Origin: Patescibacteria group bacterium
Lineage (GTDB): Bacteria; Patescibacteriota; Patescibacteriia; Patescibacteriales; UBA12465
Assembly: GCA_050949525.1 (NCBI GenBank)
Contig: JBMNFW010000001.1
Span: forward strand, 65,078-129,077
DNA length: 64,000 nucleotides
Direction of reading: 5' to 3'
This document shows positions 6,667-28,946 of this stretch, piece by piece (within the stretch, counting starts at the first letter, position 1; each line of letters opens with the position of its first letter). The notes below the pieces were generated by a model. The model made no database searches. It was not told the DNA's origin and saw nothing but the letters and a program-made list of their open reading frames with translations. The translations under genes and the position numbers were made by a program.

Positions 6667-7416
6667 ATGAAAAACAAAATTATTATTTTAGCGGCTGGGA
6701 AAGGAAAACGAATGATGTCAGATTTACCTAAGCCTCTTATTCCGGTAAATAATCGAGCTATGATTAAGTATTTACTTGATTCTATTATAGCTTCCAAAAT
6801 TGATTCTAAGCCGGTTGTAGTAGTGTCTCCGATTGGAGAAGAAATAATGAAAGAAAGTCTTAAGGAATATAATTTAAATTATGCTATACAAACTGAGGCT
6901 TTAGGAACTGGGCATGCCGTATCAGTTACAGAGAACTTAATTTCTGAAGATGTTGAAAATGTTTTAGTTCTTTATGGCGATCAACCTTTTATTAGCCAAA
7001 AATCAATGCAGAAAATTTTAGATATTCATCAATCAGAGCTTTCAATGTTGACAGTAAGCTTGGAAGATTTTAATGATTGGAGACAAGGATTCTTTCATTG
7101 GGGGAGAATTTTGAGGGGGGAAAAAGGAGAAATTAGGGAAATAGTTGAGTTTAAAGATGCTAGTGAAGAACAAAAAAAGATTACCGAACTTAATCCAGCT
7201 ATTTTTTGTTTTAATCGGAATTGGCTATTTGATAATATTAAAAATTTAAAGAATAATAATAATCAAAAAGAATATTATTTAACTGATTTAGTTAAAATAG
7301 CCTTTAATCAAGGGGTAAATATAGATAGTTGTCCAGTGGCTGCTTCTGAAGTTTTAGGGATTAATAGTCCAGAGGAGTTAGAGATAGTAGAAAAAATAAT
7401 CAAAAATGAAAAATAA
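6667..7416 (+). CDS. sugar-1-phosphate nucleotidyltransferase (GlmU N-terminal-like)
   Basis: 249 aa. N-terminal ILAAGKGKRM nucleotidyltransferase signature. Adjacent to the phosphohexomutase, so plausibly an NDP-sugar/UDP-GlcNAc route. Confidence 0.7.
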   Translation: MKNKIIILAAGKGKRMMSDLPKPLIPVNNRAMIKYLLDSIIASKIDSKPVVVVSPIGEEIMKESLKEYNLNYAIQTEALGTGHAVSVTENLISEDVENVLVLYGDQPFISQKSMQKILDIHQSELSMLTVSLEDFNDWRQGFFHWGRILRGEKGEIREIVEFKDASEEQKKITELNPAIFCFNRNWLFDNIKNLKNNNNQKEYYLTDLVKIAFNQGVNIDSCPVAASEVLGINSPEELEIVEKIIKNEK

Positions 7417-7660
7417 TTTAAAAATAATTATCTTAATAGTGGTCTTTATTTTTTTAGTAGTTTTTACTTTTCTTTTTTTTAATCGTGATAAAAAAACTAT
7501 TCAAGAAATGCCTTATGTGTCAGAAATATTTGAGTTTATTACTATTAGCTCTGAAAGAGTTGGGCAAATAAATTTTAATATTTTTCAAAAAAAAGATAAG
7601 AATAACGAGAATCTTTTACCGAGTGATTTTTCAGATTGGGAAAACTCCCTTTTAGAATAA
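7406..7660 (+). CDS. small membrane protein (hypothetical)
   Basis: 84 aa with one N-terminal TM helix (IIILIVVFIFLVVFTFLFF). No recognisable motif. Sits immediately upstream of the giant surface-protein gene. Confidence 0.35.
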   Translation: MKNNLKIIILIVVFIFLVVFTFLFFNRDKKTIQEMPYVSEIFEFITISSERVGQINFNIFQKKDKNNENLLPSDFSDWENSLLE

Positions 7661-7727
7661 ATTTTAGTTTACTTTTAATAAAAATTATGATAATCTAATA
7701 GTATAAAAACAATTATTTTATATTATT

Positions 7728-10700
7728 ATGATTAGTAAAAAAAATAAAACTCGTCGATTAGTTTTTTTGATTTATTTTCTTTTAGTTTCGGTTTTTCTTT
7801 TAGGAAAAATAGCTTTAGCTACCAGTAGTCCGAGTGTGGTTGATACCACTTTTGGTCTTGATTATGTTGAGGGTACTAATCCTGAAATGAGTAATGAGGA
7901 GGGTATTAAATTGGGGGCTAAAGATCCTCGCACTATAGCTGTTAAAATTATTAATGTTTCTCTTAGTGTTTTAGGTATAATTGCGGTTATTATTGTTATT
8001 TATGGTGGTTTTGTTTGGATGACAGCTGAAGGAAATGAGGATAAAATCTCTAAAGCTCGGGGTATATTAAAATCAGGTGTTATTGGCCTGATTATTATTT
8101 TAGCGGCTTGGGGTATAGTTACTTTAGTGTTTAATAAGTTAGGGGTTAGTACGGGTGTTAGTACTGGGGATCATTCCACTTCAACTAATAATAATATTGT
8201 TCCTCCTGGTGGTCCTGGAAGTAATTGCGGTAGTTATTATGGTAATCAATGTACTCCAGATAACACTGATTGTAATGATGGATTAGTTTGTAATAATAAT
8301 TGTATTTGTGTTCCAGATGAAACTGGTACACCATGTTCTGGTGGTGATGTTTGTACTAGCAATAATCCAGAGTGTGGTAGTAGTTTCTTTTGTGATTTTG
8401 AGGCAGATTGTACTTGTCAATTATTGGGCTACTCTAATTTAAACGAACCTTGTAGTGATGGAAATACTTGTAATGACTCTAGTAATACTTGTAATCCTCA
8501 TTATGGCTTATCTTGTGATCCTGATGCTTGTATTTGTGTGGGGGAGCCGATTATAACTGGTATTAGTCCGCAAGGAGGTTTTTGTGATAATGATATTAAT
8601 CAAGCTTGCTTAAATGATACTGCTTGTGATGGGGGTTCATGTAATATTAGTCAAGCTAATGGGGCTTTAGGAAATTTGATTACTGTTTATGGTTATAATT
8701 TTGATCACTATGATCAAGATTATTCCAAAGTTAATTTAATAAAAAGGGATGGAGAAGAAGAGATTATTATTACCGCTCAAGTTCCTAGCGAACTAAATGC
8801 TGCCTGTGGTAATTCTTGGAATAATCAACAGATAGTAGTTGCTATCCCTACTAGCACAGCACTTAGCGTTGAAGATGAGATAGAAATAGAGGTTGTTACT
8901 CGATTAGAAAAAACCGATCGGAGTCAAGATGAAAATGGTCCACTATTAGAGTCTTTGTTAATAAATAATTTAGAACGTCCGGGTTTATGTAGCGTGAAAA
9001 AGGTGGGAGATGATAATACTGAGGGGGAGTTAGAAGGGCAAATGAATGATGAACTAGAATATCATGGTTTAAATTTAATTAATAGCAAAGCTTATTTTGG
9101 TAACTCTGTTAGTAATATTTTAGGACTTTCACCTAATAATTTTTCTGATAATGATATAAAAGGAAGGGCTCGAGTTCCTAATTTATCAACTGGAAAAACT
9201 AGTACTTTTGCCAAGAAGGAAATATTACCTAGTAATTTTATGGATTTTAGAAAGATGGCTGAAGCTCCTCAAGGTCCTTCTATTTCTTTCTTTGATCCAG
9301 TGGAAGGATCTTCTGGTCAGTATGTCACTATTTATGGTAGTGGTTTTGGTAGTTTTAAAGGTATGAGTGCGGTTTATTTGGTCGGTGATAATCAAGGTTC
9401 TATTGAAGCTGATTATAATTTTCCGCCAGTTTGTTTACAATCAGTTTGGTCGGACGATAAAATTTTAATAAAAATTCCAGATAATATTGATGATGGTGAT
9501 TATTATTTAGTGCTTCAAATAGGTACTTGGAACGAAATTATATCTAGCGATACTTTTAAGGTTTCAGCTGATATTGCTTTAGGTCCTAGTTTGTGTAAAA
9601 TTAGTCCTAGTTCTGGTCCTCATAGCACCACTTTAGTTAATATGTGGGGAGAGTATTTTGGTACTCAAGCTAGAGCTGTGTTTAGTTATCAGAAATTCAC
9701 TGATTCAGTTACACCTGAAATAGAGGGAGGAGCTGATAAAATTAAAGTTTTTGTTCCTGCCGAATCAATTTCTGGTCCAGTTAAAGTTGAGAGAGATAAT
9801 ATTAGTGGCAATAGTTTAAATTTTTTAATTGGTGCTTGTTTATCTGATGATGATTGTTCTGGGTCTAATACTTGTTGTGGGGCTAATACTGTTTTAGCTG
9901 GATCTTGTGTTTCTGATAGCAATGCTTGTAATGAAGGAGCTCCTAGTAATTCTTTATTTAAATGGAGCTTTGATACTGGAGTAGCTGATGCTAGTCCATC
10001 CTTCACCGGAGATGAGCCTTATAGTTGTGCTAGCTATACTTATTGTCCTGAGACACCTTATGTTTGTCCTAATTCTCCTGGAGTTTGTTCTAAATATCTT
10101 GGTGGTCAATCAGTATTAATTTCTGGTACTTGTGATGATACTTGTCAGAGTATTTGCCCTGGTTCTATATATCGATCTGATTTAAATCGATGTGTAAAAG
10201 ATATAGGTAATTGTCATTTGGATAAAAAAATAGAGTATTCATTAGGAGAAGGTTTGGGAACCACAACTAAAATAGCAGTTTGTAAAAATTATGATATTAA
10301 TGGGACAAGAAAATCTTTTTTTGAGATTTCAGTTAGTACTAGTTGTCCTAATGGTTGGAGCATGATTTCTCCTGGTCGTTGTGTTAATGTTCCTAATGTT
10401 TATAGTGAAGAATATAGTTATACATGTGGTGCTTGTCCTTCAGGTTTAAGTTGTCAAAATTTGTATGGAAATGTTGAATTAGGTATATGTGCTTCTGGTC
10501 CTTTATGTTCTGGAGATTATTCTTGTATTAATGGTCAATGTCAAAAAGAAGATCTAGGTGATTGTCAGTGTTGTTGTGATAAGGATCAAAATAGTACTGA
10601 TGCTGATAGCTATGGTAATCCAGCTTGTTGTACTCCATTGATTTGTGATTATAAATGCGGTGTTAGCGCTAATGAGCCGACTAATAATGAAAATTATGGA

Positions 10701-13700
10701 TTATGTTCTGGTTGTAAGTTATCGGATTCAGCTGGTATTTTTGATCGAGATAATGCTTGTAATTGTTTAGGAACTTATGGTAAATTTTGCGAGGTTAGTA
10801 ATATTTATCCTGAGGGAGCTTGCTTAGATTGTTCCGCTATTCAAAGTGAAATTAATTGTAAAGAGCATGGTAATTCTTGTTGTTGGGATAAGAAAAATGA
10901 ATCTTGTCGTGGTATAAAGTCTGATAGTATTCCTTGGGATGAAGAAGATGCTAATTGGGGTTATTGCCCTTATTATTCTTGTCGAGAGGATCAACCAAAT
11001 CTTTGTAATCTTTCTTCACCATCTAGTGATAGTAATGATAATTATCTCTATTCTTCTACTAGCTCTTGTGCCATAGCTTGTCAAAAAAATTGTAATAAGT
11101 ATTTAACTTTTGATCATTGTAAAAATACTGATAATTGTTGTTGGGATGAAGAATCTAATCTTTGTTTGGAGGGAGCTGCTTTTAGTGATGAGGCAAATCT
11201 AGGAAAGTGTAAATATTATCAATGTTCTAATCCTGGAAGTGATTCACCTTGTACAGTAACTGATCAATCTAGTGATGGTGATAATCCTAATTATTTAAAA
11301 GAAAATATTTGTACACTTCAATGTAAAAACCAATCTCTAGGTTTTGGTAATTATTGCGCTTCTATTACTCCTAATTATACTAATCTTAATCCAGTTTGTG
11401 ATTCTAACGTTTGTAATTTATTTTCTTGTTTAACTAGTGAAGGAGCGGTAGCTTCTAACTCTACTGATTGTGGAGTTTGTTGTTGTAATCCAAATAGCTC
11501 AAATGATCAATGTACACAGATTAGTAGCAGCTTAACTTGTTTACCAAATAAAGGTTTGTGTACTGGATCAAAACGTGGTTTATGTTGTGGTTGTAGTACT
11601 GATGCTAGCTGTGTTAATCCTGGTTTATCGCCTCTCTTTGTTGGTTGTGGTCTCGATACTTGTTGTCGAGCTCGACCTAAAATAGAAACAAATATTAATA
11701 AATTTGCTGAGCTGGATGTTTTGCCGGAGCATGAAGATCATAATGTTTGTCGAAATGCCATGATTGAAATAAATTTTGATCAAAGAATAGATATTAATAG
11801 TTTGAGTAATAATATATTATTATTAGAGGAAACCAGCGGTGCTTGTTCTCCCGGTACATATTTTATTGGTCAAAGTAATTTTAAAAAAGATACTATTTTA
11901 GCTCGAATTTTAAAACCTATTTTAAAAATTTTTAAGAAAGATGCTTTAGCTCAAATCGGGGGAATACCAATAGATCTGCCATTTTTACCGATATCTGTAT
12001 TGAATATGCCATCATCAGTTAAAAATTATTGCGCTGTTTTAGGTAGTGTTGATTTTGAGCATTTAAGTAATAATAAAACTCGAGTTTTCTTTAAACCCAA
12101 TAATCTTCTTAAGGCCGGAACTAAATATTTTGTCGTGGTAAAAGGAGATGTTAATTTAAATAGTCAAAGTGGAATTAAAAGTTTGCACGGAATTGGTATG
12201 AGAGGTTCTGGGTATTATAGAATTACTGCGCCTTCTACTTTTTCTGGTTGGAGATCTAATGTTTTATTTAATAATGTTCGATATCCAAATTCATATATCT
12301 GGAGATTTATTACTCAATCAGTAAATTCTCCAGGAGAAGGAATTTGTACAATTGATCATGTAGAAGTGTCTCCTGATTCTTATCTTTTTCAAACATTTGA
12401 AAATGATCTTAATGAGAATGATGAAGATTCTAACCATTCCTCTTTTGATTCTGTTAAAGATCGGGATAAAGTATATGTAGCCAAAGCTTATTCCTCTGAT
12501 CATCAAAGACTACAACCTACCACTGGATATAGTTGGACTTGGGATTGGAATATTGATAATCAAGATGTTTTAAATTTCTATGATGTATTAGGTGAGGAAA
12601 GTAGTATTACTGGTTTTAGTTTAGATGGTGATAAGCGATTAATTGGAGTTAAGGGTGGTGTAACTAATGGAGAAACTTGGGTTTCTGCTACTACCGTTTT
12701 GTCTTCTCCTTATACTACTGATGGAAATAATGTTTCTAAATCAGTTCCTGCTTATGTTATGAATTGTAAAAATCCTTGGCCAGCGTTTAATGGTGAGACT
12801 TGGTCTCCATGGAAAGACACTCCTCAAAGTGGTATAGCTGGATATAATCATGAATTTTATTATTGTCGGGATGCCGGTGAGGATGGTACCGCTGATGATT
12901 TACCAGCATTTTTAAGTGATTTAGCTATCGTTAAGGGTAATAGCTTAATTAAGGTTTGCAGTAATGCCCCTACTCAGATTTGTGAAAATAGTAATGATTG
13001 TTCTAATGGTGGAATATGTTTAAGTAGTTTTTTAAAGGAAATATATTTCTTTAAAGAAAGAATTCCTCATTTTATTAAAAATATTTCCGCTAGTGATAAT
13101 GGTATGGGGGGCAGTATAAAGCTTTCCTGGGAATCAGATAAAAGTTTAGTTCATCGGTATAAGATTTATTATAATCCAGTAGCTAGTAATAATAATCAAG
13201 AGAAAATAATAAATCCTGAAACTGAATGTACTGTAGGAGGTAGTAAATATACTTGTTCAATTGATATTAATAATTTAACTAATGGGCAACAATATGCTTT
13301 CCGAGTCACAGCTCTTAGTGAGAATCAGGCTGAGACTAATTTTTCTGCCACTGTTTTTGCCACTCCTACAGTTGGAGTCTTAGAGGCGGAGGGTCTCAAT
13401 ATACCAACTAATTTAGTTGCTCAGATTGAATCATATGATGAAAAAAAGGTTAAATTATCTTGGACTGCCCCAACTAATTATCAAGTAGCTAATTATAAAG
13501 TGTATCGCGGAACTTCTCAAGGTGTTTATGCTTCTTCTTTTTTAACTAATAGTACTGAAACTGAAATTATAGTTATTTTACCATCTGGATCTGGGACTAA
13601 GCATTATTTAGCAGTCAGTACTATTGGGGTTAATAGTGTAGAGAGTGATAAATCTAATATGGTGCTAGTTGATTTTGGCGCCTTACCATTATTACCATAA
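7728..13700 (+). CDS. giant (1990 aa) cysteine-rich extracellular protein with N-terminal VirB2/TrbC-like pilin hairpin, Cys-rich modules and two C-terminal fibronectin-III-like domains
   Basis: N-terminal signal/TM (LVFLIYFLLVSVFLLGKIALA). Then two hydrophobic helices, IAVKIINVSLSVLGIIAVIIVIYGGFVWMTA and GVIGLIIILAAWGIVTLVF, separated by the charged loop EGNEDKISKARGILKS; this is the topology of TrbC/VirB2-type pilins. ~1850 aa follow with about 115 Cys by manual count, in repeated 25-30 aa modules (e.g. CTPDNTDCNDGLVCNNNCICV, CSGGDVCTSNNPECGSSFFCDFEADCTC, CSDGNTCNDSSNTCNPHYGLSCDPDACICV). Ig-like stretches (ITGISPQGG...ITVYGYNF). Two FN3-like domains near the C-terminus (KLSWESD...YAFRVTALSEN; KLSWTAPTNYQVANYKVYRG). 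Confidence 0.85.
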   Translation: MISKKNKTRRLVFLIYFLLVSVFLLGKIALATSSPSVVDTTFGLDYVEGTNPEMSNEEGIKLGAKDPRTIAVKIINVSLSVLGIIAVIIVIYGGFVWMTAEGNEDKISKARGILKSGVIGLIIILAAWGIVTLVFNKLGVSTGVSTGDHSTSTNNNIVPPGGPGSNCGSYYGNQCTPDNTDCNDGLVCNNNCICVPDETGTPCSGGDVCTSNNPECGSSFFCDFEADCTCQLLGYSNLNEPCSDGNTCNDSSNTCNPHYGLSCDPDACICVGEPIITGISPQGGFCDNDINQACLNDTACDGGSCNISQANGALGNLITVYGYNFDHYDQDYSKVNLIKRDGEEEIIITAQVPSELNAACGNSWNNQQIVVAIPTSTALSVEDEIEIEVVTRLEKTDRSQDENGPLLESLLINNLERPGLCSVKKVGDDNTEGELEGQMNDELEYHGLNLINSKAYFGNSVSNILGLSPNNFSDNDIKGRARVPNLSTGKTSTFAKKEILPSNFMDFRKMAEAPQGPSISFFDPVEGSSGQYVTIYGSGFGSFKGMSAVYLVGDNQGSIEADYNFPPVCLQSVWSDDKILIKIPDNIDDGDYYLVLQIGTWNEIISSDTFKVSADIALGPSLCKISPSSGPHSTTLVNMWGEYFGTQARAVFSYQKFTDSVTPEIEGGADKIKVFVPAESISGPVKVERDNISGNSLNFLIGACLSDDDCSGSNTCCGANTVLAGSCVSDSNACNEGAPSNSLFKWSFDTGVADASPSFTGDEPYSCASYTYCPETPYVCPNSPGVCSKYLGGQSVLISGTCDDTCQSICPGSIYRSDLNRCVKDIGNCHLDKKIEYSLGEGLGTTTKIAVCKNYDINGTRKSFFEISVSTSCPNGWSMISPGRCVNVPNVYSEEYSYTCGACPSGLSCQNLYGNVELGICASGPLCSGDYSCINGQCQKEDLGDCQCCCDKDQNSTDADSYGNPACCTPLICDYKCGVSANEPTNNENYGLCSGCKLSDSAGIFDRDNACNCLGTYGKFCEVSNIYPEGACLDCSAIQSEINCKEHGNSCCWDKKNESCRGIKSDSIPWDEEDANWGYCPYYSCREDQPNLCNLSSPSSDSNDNYLYSSTSSCAIACQKNCNKYLTFDHCKNTDNCCWDEESNLCLEGAAFSDEANLGKCKYYQCSNPGSDSPCTVTDQSSDGDNPNYLKENICTLQCKNQSLGFGNYCASITPNYTNLNPVCDSNVCNLFSCLTSEGAVASNSTDCGVCCCNPNSSNDQCTQISSSLTCLPNKGLCTGSKRGLCCGCSTDASCVNPGLSPLFVGCGLDTCCRARPKIETNINKFAELDVLPEHEDHNVCRNAMIEINFDQRIDINSLSNNILLLEETSGACSPGTYFIGQSNFKKDTILARILKPILKIFKKDALAQIGGIPIDLPFLPISVLNMPSSVKNYCAVLGSVDFEHLSNNKTRVFFKPNNLLKAGTKYFVVVKGDVNLNSQSGIKSLHGIGMRGSGYYRITAPSTFSGWRSNVLFNNVRYPNSYIWRFITQSVNSPGEGICTIDHVEVSPDSYLFQTFENDLNENDEDSNHSSFDSVKDRDKVYVAKAYSSDHQRLQPTTGYSWTWDWNIDNQDVLNFYDVLGEESSITGFSLDGDKRLIGVKGGVTNGETWVSATTVLSSPYTTDGNNVSKSVPAYVMNCKNPWPAFNGETWSPWKDTPQSGIAGYNHEFYYCRDAGEDGTADDLPAFLSDLAIVKGNSLIKVCSNAPTQICENSNDCSNGGICLSSFLKEIYFFKERIPHFIKNISASDNGMGGSIKLSWESDKSLVHRYKIYYNPVASNNNQEKIINPETECTVGGSKYTCSIDINNLTNGQQYAFRVTALSENQAETNFSATVFATPTVGVLEAEGLNIPTNLVAQIESYDEKKVKLSWTAPTNYQVANYKVYRGTSQGVYASSFLTNSTETEIIVILPSGSGTKHYLAVSTIGVNSVESDKSNMVLVDFGALPLLP

Positions 13701-13734
13701 TTATTTTAGTGTATTAAAAATTAAAATAAAAAAA

Positions 13735-16700
13735 ATGAAGAAAAAAAATATTTTTATAAGAAGAGTTTTTTTAATAACTTTGTTTTTCGGTATTCTCTTT
13801 TTAATATCTACTCAAGTATCACGAGCTTTTTCTGGGGTGGGTAATTTGGGTAATCAGGAACAGGTTGCTTCTAATACAGGTAGTGGTAATTATCAGACTA
13901 ATCCCCCCATTCTTAGTTCTCAAGAATCTTTTCAATCGGGGGAATCTGACGCTATTGCGGTTAGAGTTATTCCTAATCCCAATCATCTCAGTGCTCAGAA
14001 ATGGTATAAATCTCAAGGATTTTCTGGTTCGCCCCAATCTTTGATAGTTGATGGTTATCAAGCAGTTCGAGATGGAAGAACAGTTTATGTTTCGGCTACT
14101 AATGTGGTGGGAAATAATATTTATACTAATATTTATTTAATTTCCTATGATCAAGAAGCTGATCATCAAACGGTAGATATTTTTGGTAAAATCTTAAGTA
14201 ATTGGAAATTTAATACTAATATTAATGCTAATGTTGGTTCTTGTGTTATTTCTAATCGAAGTTGTTACTCTGATAGTGATTGCTCTGAAGGTTATGTTTG
14301 TGGAAGTCTTGGTAATGCTCAAGCTAATAAATGTATTTTAAAAGAAGCTGATGAAGATTATACTAGTTTAGAAAGTTCTCCACGTTGTTTACTTGATTCT
14401 GATTGTCCAGGAAAATTATTTTGCACTAGTCTAAAATCCAGAATTATTAGAGACTTAGATCGTTTAGAAAAAATAATTCTTTTAAAAGAAAAGATTGAAC
14501 AGTATAATAATAAGAATGGGCGATATCCAACTTTATTATCCGGAACTTATTTACCTCATGTTGCTATTTCCACTTGGCCTTCTTGGCAAAGTTCTTTTTT
14601 AGGGCAAATTGGGGCTAGTGGAGTTGTTGATCCAATTAATAGTTTAGGATCTTGTGCTGATGAGAATAAAAAGTTTGATCTCAATACTTGTTGGCGAGAA
14701 GAAGGTAATTATTTTTTTACTCCTAATAATAATTATAATAATTTTACTTTGCCGCCATATAGCTATGTTATCGCTTATACTTCTAATCCTAATGGCACTA
14801 ATTATAATCTTTGTGCGGTAATGGAAACAGTTTTAGGTGGAGATAATTATACAATTTCTGGTGGACCCTTATCTGATTTAACTTGTTCTCTTGGTTCTGG
14901 TGTAGGAAATACTGGATTCGTTGGACATAATACTAATCAAGCTCCCTATGTTTCAGAATATATGTTAGAGGGAGAGGCCGGACAAGAATTTAATGGTTAT
15001 ATTAAAGCCATTGATCCTGAGGGGCATTCTATTACTTGGGGTACTAGTATCCATACAGCACCTATGTTAATAACTAATTTTAGTTCTTGGACACCAGCCA
15101 ATAAGCCTCAACTTATTAATACTAACAATCCATTACAAAAAAGATTATGGGCTGAAAAAGCTGGGTCTCCGGGGGTGTATAAAATTAAGGTTAATTTAGC
15201 TGATAATGTTGGTTCTTCTAGTTCTGAAGTTTTGAATATTGTTATTAATCCTTCTAATCCCCAGATAATAGCTGGTGATGTTAATTATGTTTTAGGTTCA
15301 GGTTCAATTCAGGGTGAGATGTTGATTAAGTCTAAAACTCCTCTATCCAATGGAGATGTTAAAATTTTTAGAAGCAATAATGAAAGTAATAAAGTTTCTT
15401 TAAATATTATAGAAAGTGGATCACCGCTTTTTTATATCCCCCCCTTTTTACCGCCCCTTGAAGGTGGATTACGGGCTAGTTTAACAAAATTATCTGATCA
15501 AGATTATTCTCTTAAAATTTTTGGAACATTAAATCATAATGTTTTTCCTGCCGGATCTTATCCCTATACCATTGAGGTTACTACTCCATATGGATCTAGT
15601 ACTAAACAGTTTTCTATTAATGTTGCAGCTGAGAATTTAGTTTTGGATTTAAGTAATTGTCCTACTATTGCTCCTCTTGGTTCATATTATGTGTGTCCAG
15701 TAAGTGTGTTTGGTTCCAATGATGGAGTTAATTTTTCTGTTGAATCAAGCTTACCTCGAGGACTTTCATATAATAGTTCGGAAAAGAAAATTAAAGGATA
15801 TATTTTAGATTCTTTAGATCAGTATCCTATCAATGTTTCAGCTCATAATAATTTTGGGGCTAATACTTCTAAAACATTTACTTTAAGTACTTTTAGTGAT
15901 TGTGAAAATAGTCTAGTTAAGCATGAAGGAGGTCCTTGGAATTCTTCAGGAAGTACCAGAAATAATGGAGGTTATTATAAGACAGTGTTGATTGGTGGAC
16001 AATGTTGGTTAAAGGAAAATTTAAATATTGGAACGATGCTTATGTTGGGTAGTGAGCCTCATAATAATACTACTATTGAAAAACATTGTTTTGATGATAA
16101 TGAAATTTATTGTCAGAAACTTGGTGGAGTATATCAATGGGATGAAGCAATGGATTATTTCCATAACAATACACTTCAAGGTATTTGTCCTAATGGTTGG
16201 AGAGTGCCCACAGATAATGATTGGTATGTTTTAGAAAATTATTTAAAAGATCCTGGACAAGGTTGTAATGCTAATAGAGTAATGGGGTCAGAAGAGTGTT
16301 ATTCAACTGGGTTTAAGATTACAAAGAATCAAAAGTGTTGTGCTAATAATGATGATAATAATTGTACTAATTGGCCAGGAAATAATTCCTCTGGTTTTTC
16401 GGCCGTTTGTGCTCCTAGTATGAGTAGTGCTTGGTGGGGTTTTGATAATTTAAATACTGAGTGGACTGGCTGGTTAACATCAAGTTTATATGATAATGAT
16501 AATGTGCTTACTAGACACGTGTTTCATAATAATGGCTTAATTCAACGACAAAAGAAACCTAGAAATAGTGGGTTTTATGCGGTTCGGTGTGTTAAGGATG
16601 TTAAAGAGTGTCACAATAATTCTGATTGCGCTTATTTAGGAGGTGGATATACATGTAATAGTTATAATCTCTGTTCTTCAAATGTTATTAGTGGTGGAAC

Positions 16701-17091
16701 AGTTTCACCTGTTATTGTCCCTGGTACTATACCAACTGGTTCTGATGATAATAATACTCCAGGTACTATAACACCACCAAATGCAAGTACTGAGTTAGAA
16801 GCAACCACTGATACTCCCATAGTTACACCAACTGGTTCTGATGATAATAATATTCCGGGTACTATAACACCACCAAATGTGAGTACTGAACTAGGGACAA
16901 CCATTAATAAACCTACTGGTTCCGGAGATAATGTTTCTCCTGATGATAGTACTATAGCTCCACCAAATATTCATACTGGAGCTGTTGGTATAATAGAGGG
17001 CGGTACTACTAACTCTGGTTCTGGTAGCAATACTTCTCCAGGGTTAAATACCGGAACATTATTTACTGGCGGAATGACAGGTAAGCCTTAG
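13735..17091 (+). CDS. large secreted Cys-containing protein with Fibrobacter-succinogenes-major-paralogous (FISUMP) domain and C-terminal Pro/Thr-rich tandem repeats
   Basis: Start placed at MKKKNIFIRRVFLITLFFGILFLISTQVSRA (signal peptide); tracked ORF begins 13669. FISUMP-like block GGYYKTVLIGGQCWLKENLNIG...CQKLGGVYQWDEAMDY...ICPNGWRVPTDNDWYVLENYL...GFYAVRCVKD. Tail of imperfect 28-32 aa repeats PTGSDDNNTPGTITPPNASTEL... Confidence 0.8.
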   Translation: MKKKNIFIRRVFLITLFFGILFLISTQVSRAFSGVGNLGNQEQVASNTGSGNYQTNPPILSSQESFQSGESDAIAVRVIPNPNHLSAQKWYKSQGFSGSPQSLIVDGYQAVRDGRTVYVSATNVVGNNIYTNIYLISYDQEADHQTVDIFGKILSNWKFNTNINANVGSCVISNRSCYSDSDCSEGYVCGSLGNAQANKCILKEADEDYTSLESSPRCLLDSDCPGKLFCTSLKSRIIRDLDRLEKIILLKEKIEQYNNKNGRYPTLLSGTYLPHVAISTWPSWQSSFLGQIGASGVVDPINSLGSCADENKKFDLNTCWREEGNYFFTPNNNYNNFTLPPYSYVIAYTSNPNGTNYNLCAVMETVLGGDNYTISGGPLSDLTCSLGSGVGNTGFVGHNTNQAPYVSEYMLEGEAGQEFNGYIKAIDPEGHSITWGTSIHTAPMLITNFSSWTPANKPQLINTNNPLQKRLWAEKAGSPGVYKIKVNLADNVGSSSSEVLNIVINPSNPQIIAGDVNYVLGSGSIQGEMLIKSKTPLSNGDVKIFRSNNESNKVSLNIIESGSPLFYIPPFLPPLEGGLRASLTKLSDQDYSLKIFGTLNHNVFPAGSYPYTIEVTTPYGSSTKQFSINVAAENLVLDLSNCPTIAPLGSYYVCPVSVFGSNDGVNFSVESSLPRGLSYNSSEKKIKGYILDSLDQYPINVSAHNNFGANTSKTFTLSTFSDCENSLVKHEGGPWNSSGSTRNNGGYYKTVLIGGQCWLKENLNIGTMLMLGSEPHNNTTIEKHCFDDNEIYCQKLGGVYQWDEAMDYFHNNTLQGICPNGWRVPTDNDWYVLENYLKDPGQGCNANRVMGSEECYSTGFKITKNQKCCANNDDNNCTNWPGNNSSGFSAVCAPSMSSAWWGFDNLNTEWTGWLTSSLYDNDNVLTRHVFHNNGLIQRQKKPRNSGFYAVRCVKDVKECHNNSDCAYLGGGYTCNSYNLCSSNVISGGTVSPVIVPGTIPTGSDDNNTPGTITPPNASTELEATTDTPIVTPTGSDDNNIPGTITPPNVSTELGTTINKPTGSGDNVSPDDSTIAPPNIHTGAVGIIEGGTTNSGSGSNTSPGLNTGTLFTGGMTGKP
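16732..17010 (+). repeat. in-frame imperfect tandem repeat (96-nt, 84-nt, then a degenerate unit) encoding a Pro/Thr/Gly-rich linker
   Basis: ccaactggttctgatgataataatactccaggtactataacaccaccaaatgcaagtactgag... recurs at 16828 with a few substitutions. A further degenerate copy is at 16912. This repeat explains the spurious antisense ORF 16662..16904. Confidence 0.7.
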
Positions 17092-17111
17092 TGGTTTTAT
17101 TAAATTATTTA

Positions 17112-17120
17112 TGTTATAAT
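17112..17120 (+). promoter_or_regulatory. extended -10 element (TGtTATAAT) upstream of the acidic membrane-protein gene pair
   Basis: atgTTATAAT at 17111-17120, ~35 nt upstream of the ATG at 17154. No clear -35. Confidence 0.4.
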
Positions 17121-17153
17121 TTATTAACAATATTAATACTTAATTAAAAATGT

Positions 17154-17927
17154 ATGTTTGAAGATTTACAAAACGATCCTAATAGCAAAGTTGATGATAT
17201 CTTTGCTGATTCTGATCGAGTGGAGGAGCCAAAACCAAGAGTAGCTCCTTCTAATATAGATAGGGGGCCGGCTCCTCAAGCTCCGGCAACTTTACCTGAT
17301 TTTGATGAAGATGATAGTAGTGGAAGATCTGGGAAAATAATCAAAAAATTCTTTTTAGTTATTGTTATTTTGTTAGTTATTTTTATTTTAGCTTATATTC
17401 TATATTCTAAAGTATTATTACCTCGAACTGTTAATCAAGGATCTGGTTTAGATAATAATATTCCTTTAATAGATAACGAGGTTAATATTCCGTCTAATGT
17501 TGTCGATGTGGATACTGATGAAGACGCATTAGATAGCTTAGTTCCAGTTATTGCCGATGAAGAAGATAGTCTTATAGCTACTAGTTCTGAGGAAAATATT
17601 TTAGAGGAGGAAGAAGTCGAAGAGGTTATAGCAGACAGTGATAATGATGGTTTAAGTGATGATGATGAGATTTATGTTTATGGTACCAATCCTTATATTA
17701 TTGATACTGATGGTGATGGTTTAAGTGATTTTGATGAAATAATGATATTTGGTACTGATCCTTTAAATCCTGATACCGATAATGATGGATTTTTAGATGG
17801 AGGTGAAGTTTTAGCTGGTTATAGTCCATTATCAGCTGAGCCTAAAAAGCTTGATTTAGATTCAATTTTAGATCAAGAGCTTTTTCAGGAAAAATATCCG
17901 GAATTATGGACTAAAATTACACAATAA
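17154..17927 (+). CDS. acidic single-pass membrane protein with thrombospondin-type-3-like (DxDxDG) calcium-binding repeats
   Basis: 257 aa; TM helix FFLVIVILLVIFILAYILY. Extracytoplasmic tail is very acidic, with three repeats DSDNDGLSDDDE / DTDGDGLSDFDE / DTDNDGFLDGGE, each preceded by GTNP/GTDPLNP. Confidence 0.7.
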   Translation: MFEDLQNDPNSKVDDIFADSDRVEEPKPRVAPSNIDRGPAPQAPATLPDFDEDDSSGRSGKIIKKFFLVIVILLVIFILAYILYSKVLLPRTVNQGSGLDNNIPLIDNEVNIPSNVVDVDTDEDALDSLVPVIADEEDSLIATSSEENILEEEEVEEVIADSDNDGLSDDDEIYVYGTNPYIIDTDGDGLSDFDEIMIFGTDPLNPDTDNDGFLDGGEVLAGYSPLSAEPKKLDLDSILDQELFQEKYPELWTKITQ

Positions 17928-17932
17928 TAATC

Positions 17933-18949
17933 ATGTTGAAGAGGAAAAAAACAAAAACTGAAGATACTAAGGCTAATGTTCCTGAGCCGGTTTTTAAGGT
18001 TCATCGAATGCCTAAGGGTTATAAAAGTGGTCGATTTGAGCCTTCGGCTTTTTCTAGTAATCCGAGCAAGGAAAAAAGTTCTGGTGGGTCTAATAAGAAG
18101 GTGGGATTACTTATTATTTCTCTAGGCTCAATAATTGTTGTTTTTCTAATTTATATAATTATTTCTTATCTTAGCCAACCTGATTTCTCTTTGGGTGGAA
18201 TTTTTAAATTTAAATCATCTAATACTGCAGTGAAACCATCTCCAGTAGTTTTGAATGAGAAAGAACCAGCTATTTCATTAATTAACGAAGAAGAGCCTGT
18301 TGTAATAGAAGAAGAGGAGGATTTAGAATTAGATTTAGATATCGAAGAGGATTTAATAATAGATGAAGAAAATAATATGGAGGAAGAAGTAGAGGTGAGT
18401 GTTTCTTTTTTAGATAGTGATGGTGATGGCTTGAGTGATCAGGAGGAAGTATTAATTGGTACTAATCCTTTAGAGTCTGACAGTGATGGTGATGGTTATG
18501 ATGATTTTACTGAAGTTTCTAATCTTTATAATCCCTTAGGTTCGGGATTATTAAAAGATAATCGCAATATTCAGGAGTTACAAGATGATAATTTGGTTTA
18601 CTCAGTTTTATATCCTTCCTCTTTAGAGCCTAGTATTTCTAATGATGGTCATAATACTCTTTTCTTTTTGGATGATAATTCTTTTATTCAAATATTATTA
18701 GAGGAAAATGAAGGGCAACAGAATATTGCCTCTTGGTATGGGTCTCGATTTTTTAGCTTTATTGATAACTCAGAAATAATAGAGAAAGATGCTTGGTCAG
18801 GATTTTATACTTCTGATGGTTCATCTTTTTATTTAGGTGATCATGATCGAAAATATGTATTTACTATATTGTATAATTTTCCGGAAAATCAAAATCCTTT
18901 ATATATGAATATTTTTAAGATGATGATTAATTCGTTTCAATTGAAATAA
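17933..18949 (+). CDS. paralogous acidic single-pass membrane protein with TSP3-like calcium-binding repeats and extra C-terminal domain
   Basis: 338 aa; TM helix VGLLIISLGSIIVVFLIYIIISYL. Acidic E/D-rich stretch, then DSDGDGLSDQEEVLIGTNPLESDSDGDGYDDFTEV. A ~160 aa C-terminal domain of unknown function. Same architecture as the preceding gene. Confidence 0.7.
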   Translation: MLKRKKTKTEDTKANVPEPVFKVHRMPKGYKSGRFEPSAFSSNPSKEKSSGGSNKKVGLLIISLGSIIVVFLIYIIISYLSQPDFSLGGIFKFKSSNTAVKPSPVVLNEKEPAISLINEEEPVVIEEEEDLELDLDIEEDLIIDEENNMEEEVEVSVSFLDSDGDGLSDQEEVLIGTNPLESDSDGDGYDDFTEVSNLYNPLGSGLLKDNRNIQELQDDNLVYSVLYPSSLEPSISNDGHNTLFFLDDNSFIQILLEENEGQQNIASWYGSRFFSFIDNSEIIEKDAWSGFYTSDGSSFYLGDHDRKYVFTILYNFPENQNPLYMNIFKMMINSFQLK

Positions 18950-18960
18950 GTTTAAGTAAC

Positions 18961-18993
18961 AAAAAATAGAGAGGTGAAACTCTCTATTTTTTT
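18961..18993. terminator. bidirectional rho-independent terminator between convergent genes
   Basis: A-run, 7-bp stem tagagag/ctctcta with 6-nt loop, then T7 run. Serves the + strand locus ending at 18949 and clpP on the - strand. Confidence 0.6.
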
Positions 18994-19702: not shown

Positions 19703-21619
19703 ATGTCTAAGTTGAAATCGAATCTTTTTAAACAAAAAAGAAATGGCTTGATTTTCGCTTCAATTTTAATCTTTTTTGTTTTTGTGGCCTTAAAAGGAGC
19801 TGATATTTACTATAATCAGTTTTCTGATTATTTAGCTAAGAAAACTAATGATGTTATTATTTTACCTAAAATTAAGGAATCTCCCTTTCGTTTAGGACTA
19901 GATCTTCAGGGTGGAGCTCAATTAGTTTATCAAGCTGATGTGTCTCAAATTCCGGATCTTGATAAAGATGATGTTTTAGATGGAGTTCGAGATGTTATTG
20001 AAAAACGAGTTAATGCTTTTGGGGTTAGTGAGCCGATAATTCAGGTTAATAAGACTGTTGATGGTGAATATCGAATTATTGTTGAGTTAGCTGGAGTGAA
20101 GAGTGTTGAAGAGGCTATAAAGGAGATTGGGGAAACGCCTAAATTAGAGTTTAAAGAACAAGATTTAGATTCAGCTAGTTTGTCAGAAGAAGATTTAGCC
20201 TTAAAAGAAGAATATAATAATTCTTTAAAGAAAAAGGCTGAAGAGATTTATGAAAAGCTTTTAAATGGAGAAGATTTTTCATCTTTAGCTATTGCTAATA
20301 ATAGTCCAATTGTGCTTGATCCTAGTCAAGGAATTGGGGCTGAAAATGATGGTGATTTAGGTTGGATTAGCTCTAGTGACGATGCGGTTTTATATGGGAT
20401 TTTAGAAAATATTGAAATTGGTAAATTTTCTGAAATTATTGAAACTGAAGCCGATTATAATATTTTTAAGGTGGAAGATAAAAGATCATCGGTTGAAGGA
20501 GTTTTAGGTTCAGCTGAAGGAGAGGCTGAGTATAAGGTAAGGCGAATAGTTTTAAATAAGATTAGTGATCGTGATCTTTTAGAGTTTTCTGATAATTGGA
20601 AAAATACTGAATTAACTGGAAGAAATTTAAAGAAAGCGGTTTTGCAGTTTAATCCTAATACTAATGCTCCGGAAGTATCTTTAGAATTTGATGATGAAGG
20701 CGCTCAATTATTTGGTGATATTACTGAGAGAAATATTGGAAGACCAGTAGCTATTTATTTAGATGATTATGCTATTAGTGTTCCAACTGTTAATGAAAGA
20801 ATACCAGATGGTCGAGCTGTTATTTCAGGTCGTTTTAGTATCGCTGAGGCTAAAGAATTAATTCAAAGATTAAAAGCTGGAGCTTTACCAGTTCCAATTG
20901 AGTTAATAAATCAAAAAACAGTTGGTGCTAGTTTAGGAAGTCAGTCTATTCAAGATAGTTTAAAAGCTGGTATTATTGGTCTGATCTTAATCGCTCTTTT
21001 TATGATTATAGTTTATCGTTTACCAGGACTTTTATCAGTTTTCTCTTTAGTTATATATGGCTTTACTGTTTTGATTATTTTTAAATCTTTACCAGTTATT
21101 ACGGCCCTAATTATCGCTGTTTTCTTTGTGGTCATGATTTTTATAAGCTTTAATGAATTAAAAATATTGGATTTATCAATGATAGTTTTATTCCTTGTTA
21201 TTGGTATTGTTCTTTTTGTTTATAGTTTAGGTTCGGTTACCTTAACTTTAGCTGGTATTGCTGGTTTAATACTTTCAATTGGTATGGCTGTGGATGCTAA
21301 TGTTTTAATTTTTGAAAGGATGAAAGAAGAAATTCGCCAAGGTCGATCTTTAAAAAGTTCCATTGACGAGGGCATTCGTCGTTCTTGGCCTTCAATTCGC
21401 GATGGAAATATCTCTACTTTATTAACTTGTTTAGTACTAATGACTTTTGGTACCGGAGTTTTAAAAGGTTTTGGAACCACTCTTTTTATTGGGGTTTCAA
21501 TCTCTATGTTTGGTGCTATTGTTACTACTAGAGTTTTCTTAAACAAGTTTTTAGGTAAGAGGGTTGAAAAATGTCGATTTCTTTTAGGATTTAAAGTGAA
21601 ATCAGAAGAAAATAAATAA
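19703..21619 (+). CDS. secD: protein translocase subunit SecD, carrying an inserted parvulin-like (PpiC-type) PPIase-like domain in the first periplasmic region
   Basis: N-terminal TM. SecD P1 base LGLDLQGGAQLVYQAD...ELAGVKSVEEAIKEIGETPKLEFK. Then ~130 aa containing GDLGWISSSDDAVLYGILENIEIGKFSEIIETEADYNIFKVEDKR, which resembles the parvulin core (GGDLGWF...GYHIIKV). Canonical P1 head follows (LTGRNLKKAVLQFNP...GRPVAIYLDDYAISVPTV...GRFSIAEAKELIQRLKAGALPVP), then the six-TM C-terminal region. Confidence 0.9.
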   Translation: MSKLKSNLFKQKRNGLIFASILIFFVFVALKGADIYYNQFSDYLAKKTNDVIILPKIKESPFRLGLDLQGGAQLVYQADVSQIPDLDKDDVLDGVRDVIEKRVNAFGVSEPIIQVNKTVDGEYRIIVELAGVKSVEEAIKEIGETPKLEFKEQDLDSASLSEEDLALKEEYNNSLKKKAEEIYEKLLNGEDFSSLAIANNSPIVLDPSQGIGAENDGDLGWISSSDDAVLYGILENIEIGKFSEIIETEADYNIFKVEDKRSSVEGVLGSAEGEAEYKVRRIVLNKISDRDLLEFSDNWKNTELTGRNLKKAVLQFNPNTNAPEVSLEFDDEGAQLFGDITERNIGRPVAIYLDDYAISVPTVNERIPDGRAVISGRFSIAEAKELIQRLKAGALPVPIELINQKTVGASLGSQSIQDSLKAGIIGLILIALFMIIVYRLPGLLSVFSLVIYGFTVLIIFKSLPVITALIIAVFFVVMIFISFNELKILDLSMIVLFLVIGIVLFVYSLGSVTLTLAGIAGLILSIGMAVDANVLIFERMKEEIRQGRSLKSSIDEGIRRSWPSIRDGNISTLLTCLVLMTFGTGVLKGFGTTLFIGVSISMFGAIVTTRVFLNKFLGKRVEKCRFLLGFKVKSEENK

Positions 21620-27863: not shown

Positions 27864-28946
27864 TTAATAATTCAATGTTTGTATATATCTTGTGCCTCGA
27901 CCACGACCAATTCGCTTCACTTTATCAAGTTCAAGTAAACGATTAAGTGCTTGACGCACAGTTCCTAGAGCAATACCAGTTGCTTTAACAATTTCACTAG
28001 GCCCTACTCCCTTGTTAGTACTTATTAAATATTGCCAAACTTCATATTGTTTTGGTGAAAGAACATCTTCAGCTTCTTCTTTATTTAAATATGATAAAGC
28101 TCTTGTAGCTTGTTCTTTGATAATGGATAAAAAGAAAATAAGCCAAGATAAAATATTATCTTGTTTAGTTTGAAATGTTTCTTGTGATTGACGTAAAGCA
28201 ATATAATATTCATCTTTACGTTGCTCAATTAATTGTTCGTGTGAAACATATTGAGTAAATTGATAACCTGATTTTAATAATAAAAGATTAGTTAGGATAC
28301 GTGATAAGCGACCATTACCATCTTCAAAGGGGTGAATTTTTAAAAATTCAATTATAAAATTAGCAATAATTAAAAGATGATGAAAACGATTTTTTTCAAA
28401 AGCGTTATTAGTCCATTCAACTAATTCTTGCATTTCTTTGCCGGTGAGAAAAGCTGGAGTAGTCTTAAACATTATTTTAACAATTTTCCCATCTGGACCG
28501 AGAACGCCAACAGTATTTTCTTTCTTTTTATACGCACCACGATGTGTATCATCTTTAGTGGAATATTTAAGAAGTTGATTATGAAGTGAAGTAATTAAAC
28601 TTTCTTTAAGAGTTAAGTTTTGATGATTATTAAAAATATTTTGTAAAACTTCTAAATAGCCTTGAACTTCTTGAAAATCACGATTGGCAAATTTAGAAAT
28701 AGTTAGACCACGCATGATTTTTTCAATTTCCTTGTCACTTAGTTTTGAACCCTCAATACGAGTAGAGGCACCAGTAGAAGTAATTAAGGTAGATTTTTTA
28801 AGATTGGTAACAGCTTGTGGAGTCATTTTAAAACTAGCTTTAAATTCACCTTTAATTTCATCAATTTCAGCTAAGGTATTAACAATCTGAGGATTAATGT
28901 ATTGTAAGCGGTGATCAAATTTATTTAAAATTTTATTTTTTGACAT
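27864..28946 (-). CDS. Fic-family protein (class II, auto-inhibited AMP-transferase type) with C-terminal winged-helix DNA-binding domain
   Basis: 360 aa. Canonical Fic motif HPFEDGNGRLSR. N-terminal inhibitory-helix motif STRIEG ([ST]xxxE[GN]). C-terminal wHTH LGTVRQALNRLLELDKVKRIGRGRGTRY. Confidence 0.9.
   Translation of the reverse strand: MSKNKILNKFDHRLQYINPQIVNTLAEIDEIKGEFKASFKMTPQAVTNLKKSTLITSTGASTRIEGSKLSDKEIEKIMRGLTISKFANRDFQEVQGYLEVLQNIFNNHQNLTLKESLITSLHNQLLKYSTKDDTHRGAYKKKENTVGVLGPDGKIVKIMFKTTPAFLTGKEMQELVEWTNNAFEKNRFHHLLIIANFIIEFLKIHPFEDGNGRLSRILTNLLLLKSGYQFTQYVSHEQLIEQRKDEYYIALRQSQETFQTKQDNILSWLIFFLSIIKEQATRALSYLNKEEAEDVLSPKQYEVWQYLISTNKGVGPSEIVKATGIALGTVRQALNRLLELDKVKRIGRGRGTRYIQTLNY

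Follow-up and report, generated by a model that had tools for sequence, protein, structure and literature searches.

A pilin-anchored, cysteine-rich surface-protein module conserved in Patescibacteria is a candidate attachment apparatus

Beyond a few cultivated Saccharibacteria, the contact of uncultivated Patescibacteria with other cells is unexplained. Experiments have implicated type IV pili, a type IV secretion system (T4SS) of unknown role and a few adhesins in cell contact by Patescibacteria (PMC10633639, PMC11665869). T4SSs with VirB2-like pilins are widespread in the group, ABY1 included, with the pilin near virB4 in 1,135 of 1,948 assemblies, and no PrgB-type adhesin has been found (PMC12102498). 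The "T4SS pilin" domain has also been reported to dominate freshwater-specific protein clusters (bioRxiv 10.1101/2025.04.23.650224). Here we describe a locus in which such a pilin hairpin forms the N-terminus of a very large surface protein. The locus lies in a 64,000-nucleotide (nt) stretch from a Patescibacteria group bacterium (contig JBMNFW010000001.1, positions 65,078 to 129,077; hereafter the window) and consists of a small gene, g1, followed by four genes, g2 to g5, which encode a pilin-anchored cysteine-rich giant, a secreted stalk protein with an exchangeable head and two acidic membrane proteins with calcium-binding motifs. The best explanation of g2 to g5 is a vertically inherited surface-protein module of Parcubacteria/ABY1-type Patescibacteria. 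That these four genes form one functional module is very probable; that they build an extracellular fibre binding another cell or a surface, as their domain types and the swapping of heads suggest, we regard as an even call.

An earlier note on this DNA had described five consecutive plus-strand open reading frames (ORFs) with sugar-nucleotide genes upstream and a hairpin terminator downstream, and this layout was confirmed: g1 (7406-7660), g2 (7728-13700), g3 (13735-17091), g4 (17154-17927) and g5 (17933-18949) all lie on the plus strand. The note had also taken their co-orientation as an argument for linkage, which does not hold, because 46 of the 51 ORFs of at least 100 amino acids (aa) in the window lie on that strand. 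Searches with profile hidden Markov models (HMMs) bore out its T4SS_pilin, FN3, Big_5, FISUMP and TSP3 (thrombospondin type 3) domain calls, all of which scored above cutoff, and returned no enzymatic Pfam or NCBIfam match among the g1 to g5 proteins, consistent with its statement that none carries an enzymatic motif. LPXTG signals, RTX repeats and lipoboxes are absent from all five proteins.

The case for a module rests on gene order and gene fusion in relatives, where the genes co-occur as a block, as the note had anticipated. In five long contigs, orthologs of g2, g3, g4 and g5 (30-45% identity) keep their order and are followed by clpP on the minus strand, secD, secF and a Wzy_C gene, with pilD, ftsA and ftsZ further out where the flank reaches. 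A scan of genome contigs with g5 was dominated by the ubiquitous TSP3 motif and contained true orthologs at 4 of 80 loci, all four of which lie after a giant or g3-like gene and g4. Retrieval with the g3 N-terminal region yielded 80 metagenome loci, at which the giant is immediately upstream of g3 (65/74), g4 and g5 are downstream (46/52) and the full g2-g3-g4-g5 order is present (45/51). Five of the six incomplete loci are g3 paralogs elsewhere in the genome, and the sixth (L165) may have a split g3. Orthologs of g4 directly follow the giant or g3 in all related loci, including those of Uhrbacteria and Jacksonbacteria.

Linkage of g2 and g3 goes beyond adjacency, because distant relatives carry them as one polypeptide. 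At seven deep loci (L010, L011, L015, L023, the Uhrbacteria assembly L172, L173, and L174 with the giant P0087, which carries the name Jacksonbacteria), a single protein of 2.4-3.4 thousand aa unites the pilin hairpin, the body of g2 and the N-terminal module of g3; the L015 and L023 giants end at a contig edge, and their hairpin is not visible. A g4-like and then a g5-like gene lie 3' of these giants (L015, with two g5-like proteins, is the exception), and the loci continue with ybeY, sometimes dgkA, and ftsA-ftsZ-nrdR. The deep g4-like proteins mostly start with "MF(E/D)D...(E/D)DIF" and carry TSP3 motifs, and the deep g5-like proteins have the C-terminal domain of g5, together with a recognisable "[IV]-[HY]-x-M-P" motif in four of the seven cases. 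Rearrangements are seen only at the borders of the module and never inside it: the upstream neighbour varies by lineage (GlmM/GlmU, RelA or YqeY), and in the clade of the window ClpP-SecDF-Wzy-PilD is inserted before ftsA. Furthermore, relatives differ in whether the giant or g3 carries the FISUMP domain, and downstream of g3 paralogs at unrelated loci there is once more a TSP3 gene. The five-gene unit proposed in the note is thus supported for g2 to g5, while g1 is kept only in the subclade of the window, and the case is weaker for g4 and g5 than for g2-g3.

Some related loci hold further surface-protein genes. The paralog locus L136 (9887-13912; also L140, L142 and L150) encodes a second, ~1010-aa g3 paralog and directly after it a 325-aa TSP3-repeat protein in an unrelated housekeeping neighbourhood, and this type of paralog lies ~7 kb downstream of a free-standing 124-aa T4SS_pilin gene. 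Within L173 (1-4107), dockerin, cohesin and CarboxypepD_reg/SpaA-like proteins, a second surface-assembly set, are encoded a few kb upstream of the fused giant.

The giant encoded by g2 (1990 aa) carries an N-terminal hairpin anchor followed by ~1850 extracellular residues. Its first 31 residues (7728-7820; ...KIALA/TSS), with a hydrophobic stretch at aa 11-29, align in 15 homologs as a signal peptide whose cleavage site was read from the sequence rather than predicted by a tool. A VirB2/TrbC-like helical hairpin follows (7932-8132), consisting of a transmembrane (TM) helix at aa 74-92 (TM1), the basic loop "WMTAEGNEDKISKARG" and a second helix at aa 117-135 (TM2); the loop pattern "WMT.EG.E.KI..A[KR]" is conserved in 15 aligned sequences. 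PF18895 (T4SS_pilin) matches aa 69-134 at 35.8 bits (cutoff 26.6) over profile positions 7-71 of 71, and NF045849 (Mbov_0395 pilin-like) matches at 26.9 bits, under its cutoff of 40. The build of a T4SS pilin, i.e., a hydrophobic segment and then two helices around a short basic loop, is therefore present in g2, but the hairpin-only size of such pilins (about 100-130 aa) is not, as 1850 residues come after TM2. Free-standing 124-aa PF18895 pilins of related genomes (L136, L142) align residue for residue with the g2 N-terminus and stop right after TM2, where the giants continue. From this alignment we therefore assign g2 a cleaved signal peptide, TM1, a cytoplasmic basic loop, TM2 and ~1850 aa outside. 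The VirB2-like anchor named in the note accordingly stands at the level of profile and topology but not of a secretion system, as T4SS machinery was found neither in the window nor in the flanking DNA fetched for related loci. Many other large proteins of Patescibacteria have nothing but the N-terminal hairpin domain in common with g2 (P0079-P0088), and the hairpin may thus simply be a membrane anchor. It has no relatives among annotated plasmids (tblastn) or solved structures (profile search), and g2, g3 and the FISUMP domain have no sequence relatives in the PDB.

Beyond the hairpin, g2 is built from cysteine-rich regions and Ig-like domains. A first Cys-rich module (aa 150-300, 21 Cys; 8175-8627) is followed by an IPT/TIG-like Ig domain (aa 517-607; 9276-9548), a central Cys-rich block (aa ~700-1350, about 80 Cys; 9825-11777), a Big_5 bacterial Ig-like domain (aa 1331-1377; 11718-11858; 28.3 bits, cutoff 23.6) and a C-terminal FN3 pair (aa 1784-1873 and ~1890-1985; 13077-13682; 41.2 bits, cutoff 25). 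The TIG call of the note falls just under threshold in g2 itself (19.8 bits, cutoff 20.9), but PF01833 is recorded on many homologs. Neither Cys-rich region matches a Pfam model, and the first is common to g2 and a ~900-aa pilin-anchored paralog of relatives. Cysteine makes up 5.8% of the protein (115 residues, clustered in these two regions), and 108 of the 115 are conserved in at least 80% of 32 homologs, including nearly all of those in the central block, although these homologs are merely 33-54% identical overall. Conservation in this set is even and strong along the whole length, a pattern more in keeping with a structural protein under constraint than with a variable antigen that evolves fast. 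Architecture varies among the relatives: P0036 and P0037 lack aa 753-1120 of g2, the L006 giant has repeated FN3 matches, a FISUMP domain follows the FN3 region of the giant in L005 and L006, and FISUMP annotation is also found, not always C-terminally, on P0002, P0003, P0005, P0012 and P0015. The full-length homologs (33-54% identity) are found in Patescibacteria; GenBank names the giant merely "FN3 domain-containing protein" in the closest entries, and more distant homologs are labelled Falkowbacteria, Uhrbacteria and Jacksonbacteria.

Downstream of the giant, g3 encodes a secreted protein with an exchangeable head. The note had given it 1140 aa, counted from TTG 13669; its secretion signal is present, but the start is most likely ATG 13735, which gives 1118 aa, because gene callers use this ATG and a classic signal peptide (aa 1-33) begins there. 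The protein has no LPXTG signal, C-terminal TM helix or lipobox. Its conserved N-terminal module (aa ~63-390; 13921-14904), delimited by phmmer and HMM maps, has an unclassified fold, predicted by AlphaFold2 mostly with a predicted local distance difference test score (pLDDT) above 85. It is followed by a stalk of tandem Ig/cadherin-like beta-sandwich domains (aa ~391-735; 14905-15939), a FISUMP (Fib_succ_major) head (15985-16596; PF09603 78.9 bits, cutoff 33.9; TIGR02145 84.2 bits, cutoff 41.65) and a tail in which the PT-rich segment seen in the note corresponds to a tandem repeat (16728-16909; two 86-nt copies, 86% identical and 96 nt apart). An AlphaFold2 model of aa 1-760 (pLDDT 83.7) shows the N-terminal module and then the tandem beta-sandwich domains, and Foldseek matched the stalk best to the cadherin-like modules of two Gram-positive adhesins, SraP and GspB, and to protocadherins, titin and an RTX-adhesin extender (6xi1). 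Fold searches with the model were dominated by these Ig stalk matches. Alignment of the N-terminal module with a real N_methyl pilin of L005 is in register over alpha1-C, at an expectation value (E) of only about 0.03-0.05.

More than 457 members of the g3 family combine a conserved N-terminal 650-700 aa with interchangeable C-terminal heads, which include FISUMP, vWA, DUF1566, Flg_new, beta-helix, LamG-like and CarboxypepD_reg. Two cysteines, C83 and C217, are invariant in the FISUMP domain alignment. A survey of diversity-generating retroelements (DGRs) groups Fib_succ_major with DUF1566 and DUF823 as C-type-lectin-fold diversified binding domains, and by this analogy the g3 head would belong to the C-type-lectin class (PMC5758913). 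We considered whether a DGR diversifies the FISUMP heads and rejected this, as the window contains neither a reverse transcriptase (RT) nor a template/variable repeat pair.

Several observations around g3 stand apart from these results. A DGR, represented by bAvd and an RT (L006 1-1683), lies a few kb upstream of the module in L006, with its target outside the fetched DNA. L005 has, likewise a few kb upstream (1330-2388), a 352-aa protein that joins a type IV pilin (N_methyl) to FISUMP, so that the FISUMP head is also mounted on type IV pili in that lineage. In the strain variant P0209, which is 97% identical overall, almost all residues of g3 aa 435-461 (about 15037-15117) are changed; this 27-aa patch begins with a 1-aa indel and resembles a compensated frameshift or a short recombination tract. 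Finally, an HMM of the g5 C-terminal domains weakly matches the first beta-rich part of the g3 N-terminal module (aa ~65-146, E = 4e-5), and similar weak matches occur in about ten g3 homologs of the 80-locus set, which may reflect distant homology or a compositional artefact.

The last two genes, g4 (257 aa) and g5 (338 aa), separated by only 5 nt, encode acidic bitopic membrane proteins. A cytoplasmic N-terminus ("MFEDL...VDDIFADSD"), a TM helix at aa 66-84, an acidic linker and three TSP3 motifs at aa 161-218 make up g4. In g5, a cytoplasmic motif "VHRMPKGYKSGRF" (aa 23-35), a TM helix at aa 55-81, a disordered acidic linker and two TSP3 motifs at aa 161-194 precede a C-terminal PsbP/Mog1-like domain (aa ~200-338). 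TSP3_bac (PF18884) matches g4 at 50.7 bits, with three canonical DxDxDGxxDxxE motifs, and g5 at 38.1 bits, with two. Residues D161, D163, D165, D183, D185 and D187 of g5 are invariant among 47 homologs, and at the level of these motifs the repeats of both proteins probably bind Ca2+. Aspartate and glutamate account for 24% of g4 and 18% of g5, the isoelectric point is about 4 and cysteine is absent in both. The two proteins had been taken for paralogs, which we do not support: they share a 36-aa TSP3 stretch (58% identity) and a layout of cytoplasmic tail, single TM helix, acidic linker and TSP3 repeats, and g5 has a C-terminal domain of its own. Both carry conserved cytoplasmic motifs ("MF..L...DDIFA" in g4, "[VI]H.MP" in g5).

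A confident structural model of the g5 C-terminal domain matches members of the PsbP/Mog1p fold, and a profile search of the PDB matched this domain to 2xb3 (E = 0.0097). PF01789 (PsbP) gives no match to g5 at E of 0.01 or better and is annotated on only P0100 and P0143 among the homologs. The position of g5 upstream of ftsA had suggested a homolog of FtsQ/DivIB, a candidate that we rejected on account of the PsbP/Mog1-like fold and the lack of a POTRA or FtsQ Pfam match; a functional analogy without family membership may nevertheless exist. In sister lineages, small proteins of 63-71 aa with the same "H-x-M-P" motif and a TM helix are encoded between g4 and g5 (L007 20157-20351, L008 20533-20727, L009 20855-21070 and L013 9632-9823); they look like a minimal copy of the g5 N-terminus and are absent in the window. 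A Na+/Ca2+ exchanger is encoded at 44854-45804 and might, speculatively, matter for the supply of Ca2+ to TSP3 repeats.

If g2 to g5 build a fibre, it would most likely be membrane-anchored, disulfide-stabilised and Ca2+-dependent, with a ligand-binding tip. Sec would export g2 and its signal peptide would be cut, after which the VirB2-type hairpin would stay in the membrane and the ~1850 aa would project outward; here the topology comes from the sequence, and we infer the export route. About 54 conserved disulfides, together with the TIG, Big_5 and FN3 domains, would make the projecting part a rigid stalk, a proposal that follows from the conservation of 108 cysteines. Secreted separately, g3 would dock on g2, because in distant lineages its N-terminal module follows straight on from the C-terminal end of the g2-like giant; in such fusions the two would be covalently continuous. 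It would add an Ig/cadherin-like extension and an exchangeable head, here FISUMP of the C-type-lectin class, which would give binding specificity. At the base of the fibre, g4 and g5 would be bitopic partners whose TSP3 repeats bind Ca2+; the PsbP/Mog1-like domain of g5 could serve as a protein-docking module, and the conserved cytoplasmic motifs could tie the assembly to a cytoplasmic partner. Complex formation, Ca2+ binding, surface exposure and, above all, attachment are the parts of this model that we infer from the topology, domain identities, fusion, head swapping and conservation described above.

Several findings weigh against a fibre for attachment. The even conservation of g2 is one of them, since typical adhesins evolve fast. 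The domain classes from which adhesion is proposed also occur in non-adhesive envelope proteins; the adhesion-type modules that the note had seen throughout the locus hold as domain matches, but TSP3 is not specifically adhesion-type, being common in wall-associated proteins and fused to YkuD L,D-transpeptidases in Patescibacteria and to OmpA-family proteins in other phyla. Strain variants show no diversification focused on the head, the sole dense patch being the Ig-like segment of g3 at aa 435-461, and nothing in the module matches a template of the L006 retroelement. Unrelated genes (lepB, hisS, rpsU, yqeY, ybeY, dgkA, ftsA and ftsZ) share the deep syntenic block, so that gene order here can persist without a functional link. 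Lastly, the module keeps an ancestral position next to ftsA-ftsZ, which leaves room for a role in the envelope or in division.

Such a role is the rival that survives best, although we consider it unlikely: g2 to g5 could form a scaffold that spans the wall or resembles an S-layer, or else a divisome accessory, with g4 and g5 linking the wall to division or polarity proteins as a stand-in for FtsQ/DivIB, and with host binding secondary or absent. The module lies directly upstream of ybeY-(dgkA)-ftsA-ftsZ in all seven deep loci, and ftsA-ftsZ is still less than 7 kb away in the window, but ybeY, and often dgkA too, always stands between g5 and ftsA, and the unrelated genes of the same block mean that proximity to ftsAZ may signify nothing. 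In favour of this reading, ftsQ is poorly conserved and often recognised solely by its place before ftsA (PMC8871954); against it, g5 has no POTRA or FtsQ fold. The bitopic build and strongly conserved cytoplasmic motifs of g4 and g5 would suit such a linker, as would the recurrence of TSP3 in peptidoglycan-associated transpeptidases and OmpA-family proteins and the envelope-biogenesis lipoproteins LpqN and DcrB among relatives of the PsbP/Mog1 fold. The giant is also present as a single copy in the window and at almost all sampled loci, and its even conservation resembles that of a core structural gene. S-layer proteins are typically cysteine-poor, however, in contrast to the 115 Cys of g2, and a structural or division role alone would hardly account for the swappable heads (lectin, vWA and DUF1566) of g3 and g2.

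The attachment fibre is also to be weighed against display on a T4SS pilus, in which the hairpin would be a working VirB2-type pilin and a T4SS encoded elsewhere would place g2 (and, in relatives, the ~900-aa paralog) into or at the tip of a conjugative-type pilus, with its 1850 aa as the adhesin. This is attractive because the T4SSs of Patescibacteria have VirB2-like pilins and no recognised adhesin (PMC12102498). The above-cutoff PF18895 match and the topology shared with the free 124-aa pilins point the same way, and P0019 also gives a weak TrbC match (PF04956). In the solved structures of the F- and T-pilus the pilin has both its ends on the outside, so that a C-terminal fusion could be displayed. 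However, the 64-kb window and up to 10 kb of flanking DNA fetched at each of about 95 related loci yielded no VirB4, VirB6 or VirD4, the module is fixed beside ftsA-ftsZ and not beside T4SS genes, and even the free 124-aa pilin of L142 sits among housekeeping genes. The hairpin also lacks a relative among plasmid or solved pilins, and a disulfide-rich cargo of 1850 aa on every subunit is sterically implausible for a polymer; g2 would therefore be at best a minor or tip subunit, and we find the proposal distinctly unlikely. A hybrid of these readings seems to us similarly doubtful, namely an ancestral envelope-spanning organelle of Parcubacteria/ABY1-type Patescibacteria for host contact, with the pilin hairpin co-opted as the root (or still handled by a T4SS) of a disulfide-rich fibre of 2-3.4 thousand aa that bears swappable lectin-type heads, and with g4 and g5 coupling this fibre, by way of their conserved cytoplasmic motifs, to division or polarity machinery linked to FtsA/FtsZ; if it were true, attachment and cell-cycle state would be physically connected. 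Finally, that g2 to g5 are unrelated surface proteins kept together only by the generally frozen gene order of small genomes is very unlikely: functionally unrelated housekeeping genes are indeed conserved in the same block over the same phylogenetic depth and co-orientation is the rule across the whole window, but g2 and g3 form one polypeptide in distant lineages (which already disfavours this reading for that pair), the FISUMP head moves between them, the pairing with a TSP3 protein recurs for a g3 paralog at another locus, border rearrangements all spared the interior of the module and the g4-g5 gap is 5 nt.

The first gene, g1, is a subclade-specific add-on and, on present sequence comparisons, would be the weakest and least secure member of the module. 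It encodes 84 aa with a TM helix at aa 7-25, its start overlaps the glmU-like gene by 11 nt, and it matches no Pfam family above cutoff. Homologs occur only in the subclade of the window (L005, L006, L092, L094, L095 and L096), always directly upstream of the giant. In most other lineages the giant is preceded instead by a second pilin-anchored protein, 600-900 aa long and with a Big_5 domain (32/42 loci), which the window lacks. One weak iterative match is all that connects g1 to a small ~100-aa TM protein encoded between g3 and g4 in the sister clade, so that a relocated copy of that protein seems doubtful.

The window has 31% GC and a strongly positive GC skew. Upstream of g1 lie a gene for a GlmM-type mutase, which scores as archaeal-type GlmM (TIGR03990, 457 bits), and then a gene of the GlmU N-terminal nucleotidyltransferase type (6667-7416), whose 249-aa product comprises only this half of GlmU and is missing the left-handed-helix acetyltransferase domain. 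Downstream, a palindromic hairpin terminator (18961-18992; 13-bp stem with A/T runs on both sides; -15.5 kcal/mol, z = -3.57) separates g5 from the convergent clpP on the minus strand. Further features of the window lie outside the locus. The secD gene (19703-21619) carries a PPIC-type peptidyl-prolyl isomerase (Rotamase) domain inserted at aa 169-261 within the P1 region, an insertion present in L005 and L006 and absent in L007, L008 and L009. FtsZ (26535-27812) ends in two tandem C-terminal peptides (...LEAPAFLRNK and ...LDVPAFLRNK, at 27679-27730 and 27748-27799), and the duplication is unusual for this tail, through which FtsZ ordinarily contacts FtsA and further partners. Among the few minus-strand genes is one of the Fic/DOC family (27864-28946); its product has a DIP2311-like C-terminal domain, and it lies between ftsZ and an hrcA-grpE-hsp20-dnaK-dnaJ cluster. 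A 770-aa DUF3160 protein is encoded just upstream of rpoB (47252-49564), and a 332-aa protein with an SBP_bac_3/Lig_chan-Glu_bd domain and an ion-channel pore (60808-61806) is a GluR0-like prokaryotic glutamate-receptor channel, which is unexpected in so small a genome.

The module offers a concrete candidate apparatus for cell contact, widely conserved in lineages other than Saccharibacteria, with an anchor, a stalk, an exchangeable head and a base as its parts; the type of head would be a handle for predicting host or ligand specificity. The "T4SS pilin" domain may often anchor giant surface proteins rather than be a free pilin, and if so, counts of "VirB2 homologues" in genome surveys could be affected. 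We found no published description of the module in the full-text literature on the Pfam family, the domain combination and large Patescibacteria surface proteins, where the work that turned up dealt only with type IV pili, with a few adhesins of Saccharibacteria and with small VirB2-like pilins encoded near virB4; this agrees with the note, which knew of no described system with this combination. In databases the parts are annotated singly, as "IPT/TIG", "FISUMP", "thrombospondin type 3 repeat" or "hypothetical".

Each part of the locus can be set beside a known system. The N-terminus of g2 is built like the VirB2/TrbC pilins of T4SSs (PF18895, including the T4SS pilin arrays of Saccharibacteria), with a signal peptide and a pair of hydrophobic helices joined by a short basic loop, but g2 is about 15 times longer, with 1850 extracellular residues after TM2, and has no T4SS genes nearby. 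Compared with the serine-rich-repeat adhesins SraP and GspB/Hsa, the module lacks an LPXTG/sortase signal, serine-rich repeats and an accessory Sec system; it is cysteine-rich and would be anchored through a partner protein with a pilin-like hairpin. RTX adhesins of the LapA, MpIBP and FrhA type are likewise very large, with repetitive Ig-like extenders, Ca2+ dependence (at the motif level in the module) and distal ligand-binding modules, but the module has no RTX nonapeptides (GGxGxDxUx), the window has no type I secretion genes, the cell is monoderm, and the Ca-binding repeats lie on separate small membrane proteins rather than in the fibre. The g3 head falls in the same class as the C-type-lectin-fold proteins diversified by DGRs (Legionella LdtA; the "CLec2" class), and relatives carry DUF1566 in the same position; unlike those targets, it has no RT, DGR or template/variable repeat pair in its window, and the L006 DGR does not match the module. 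The PsbP/Mog1-fold proteins (cyanobacterial PsbP, BT_1490, mycobacterial LpqN/Apa/MTC28, DcrB and the type VI secretion immunity proteins Tsi3/TplEi) share 5-16% sequence identity with g5, which differs from them in being bitopic and in carrying TSP3 repeats and a conserved cytoplasmic motif. With FtsQ/DivIB, g5 shares a bitopic build, a short cytoplasmic tail, one TM helix, an extracytoplasmic domain and a gene just upstream of ftsA-ftsZ; it differs in lacking a POTRA domain and in having ybeY between its gene and ftsA. The TSP3 repeats of g4 and g5 resemble, with weak NCBIfam matches, those of the Myxococcus proteins CglD (gliding adhesion complex) and MtsD (cell-cell cohesion), a likeness that is confined to the repeats (17-34 bits against cutoffs of 400-800), as the architectures differ and the Myxococcus envelope is diderm. 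CglD combines TSP3 repeats with a vWA domain, and vWA also occurs as the head of some g3 relatives. Modular adhesin fibres with accessory membrane proteins are already known as a general kind; what appears to be new is the root made of a pilin hairpin, the giant that is split in some lineages and fused in others, and the conserved bitopic partners of TSP3/PsbP-like type beside ftsAZ.

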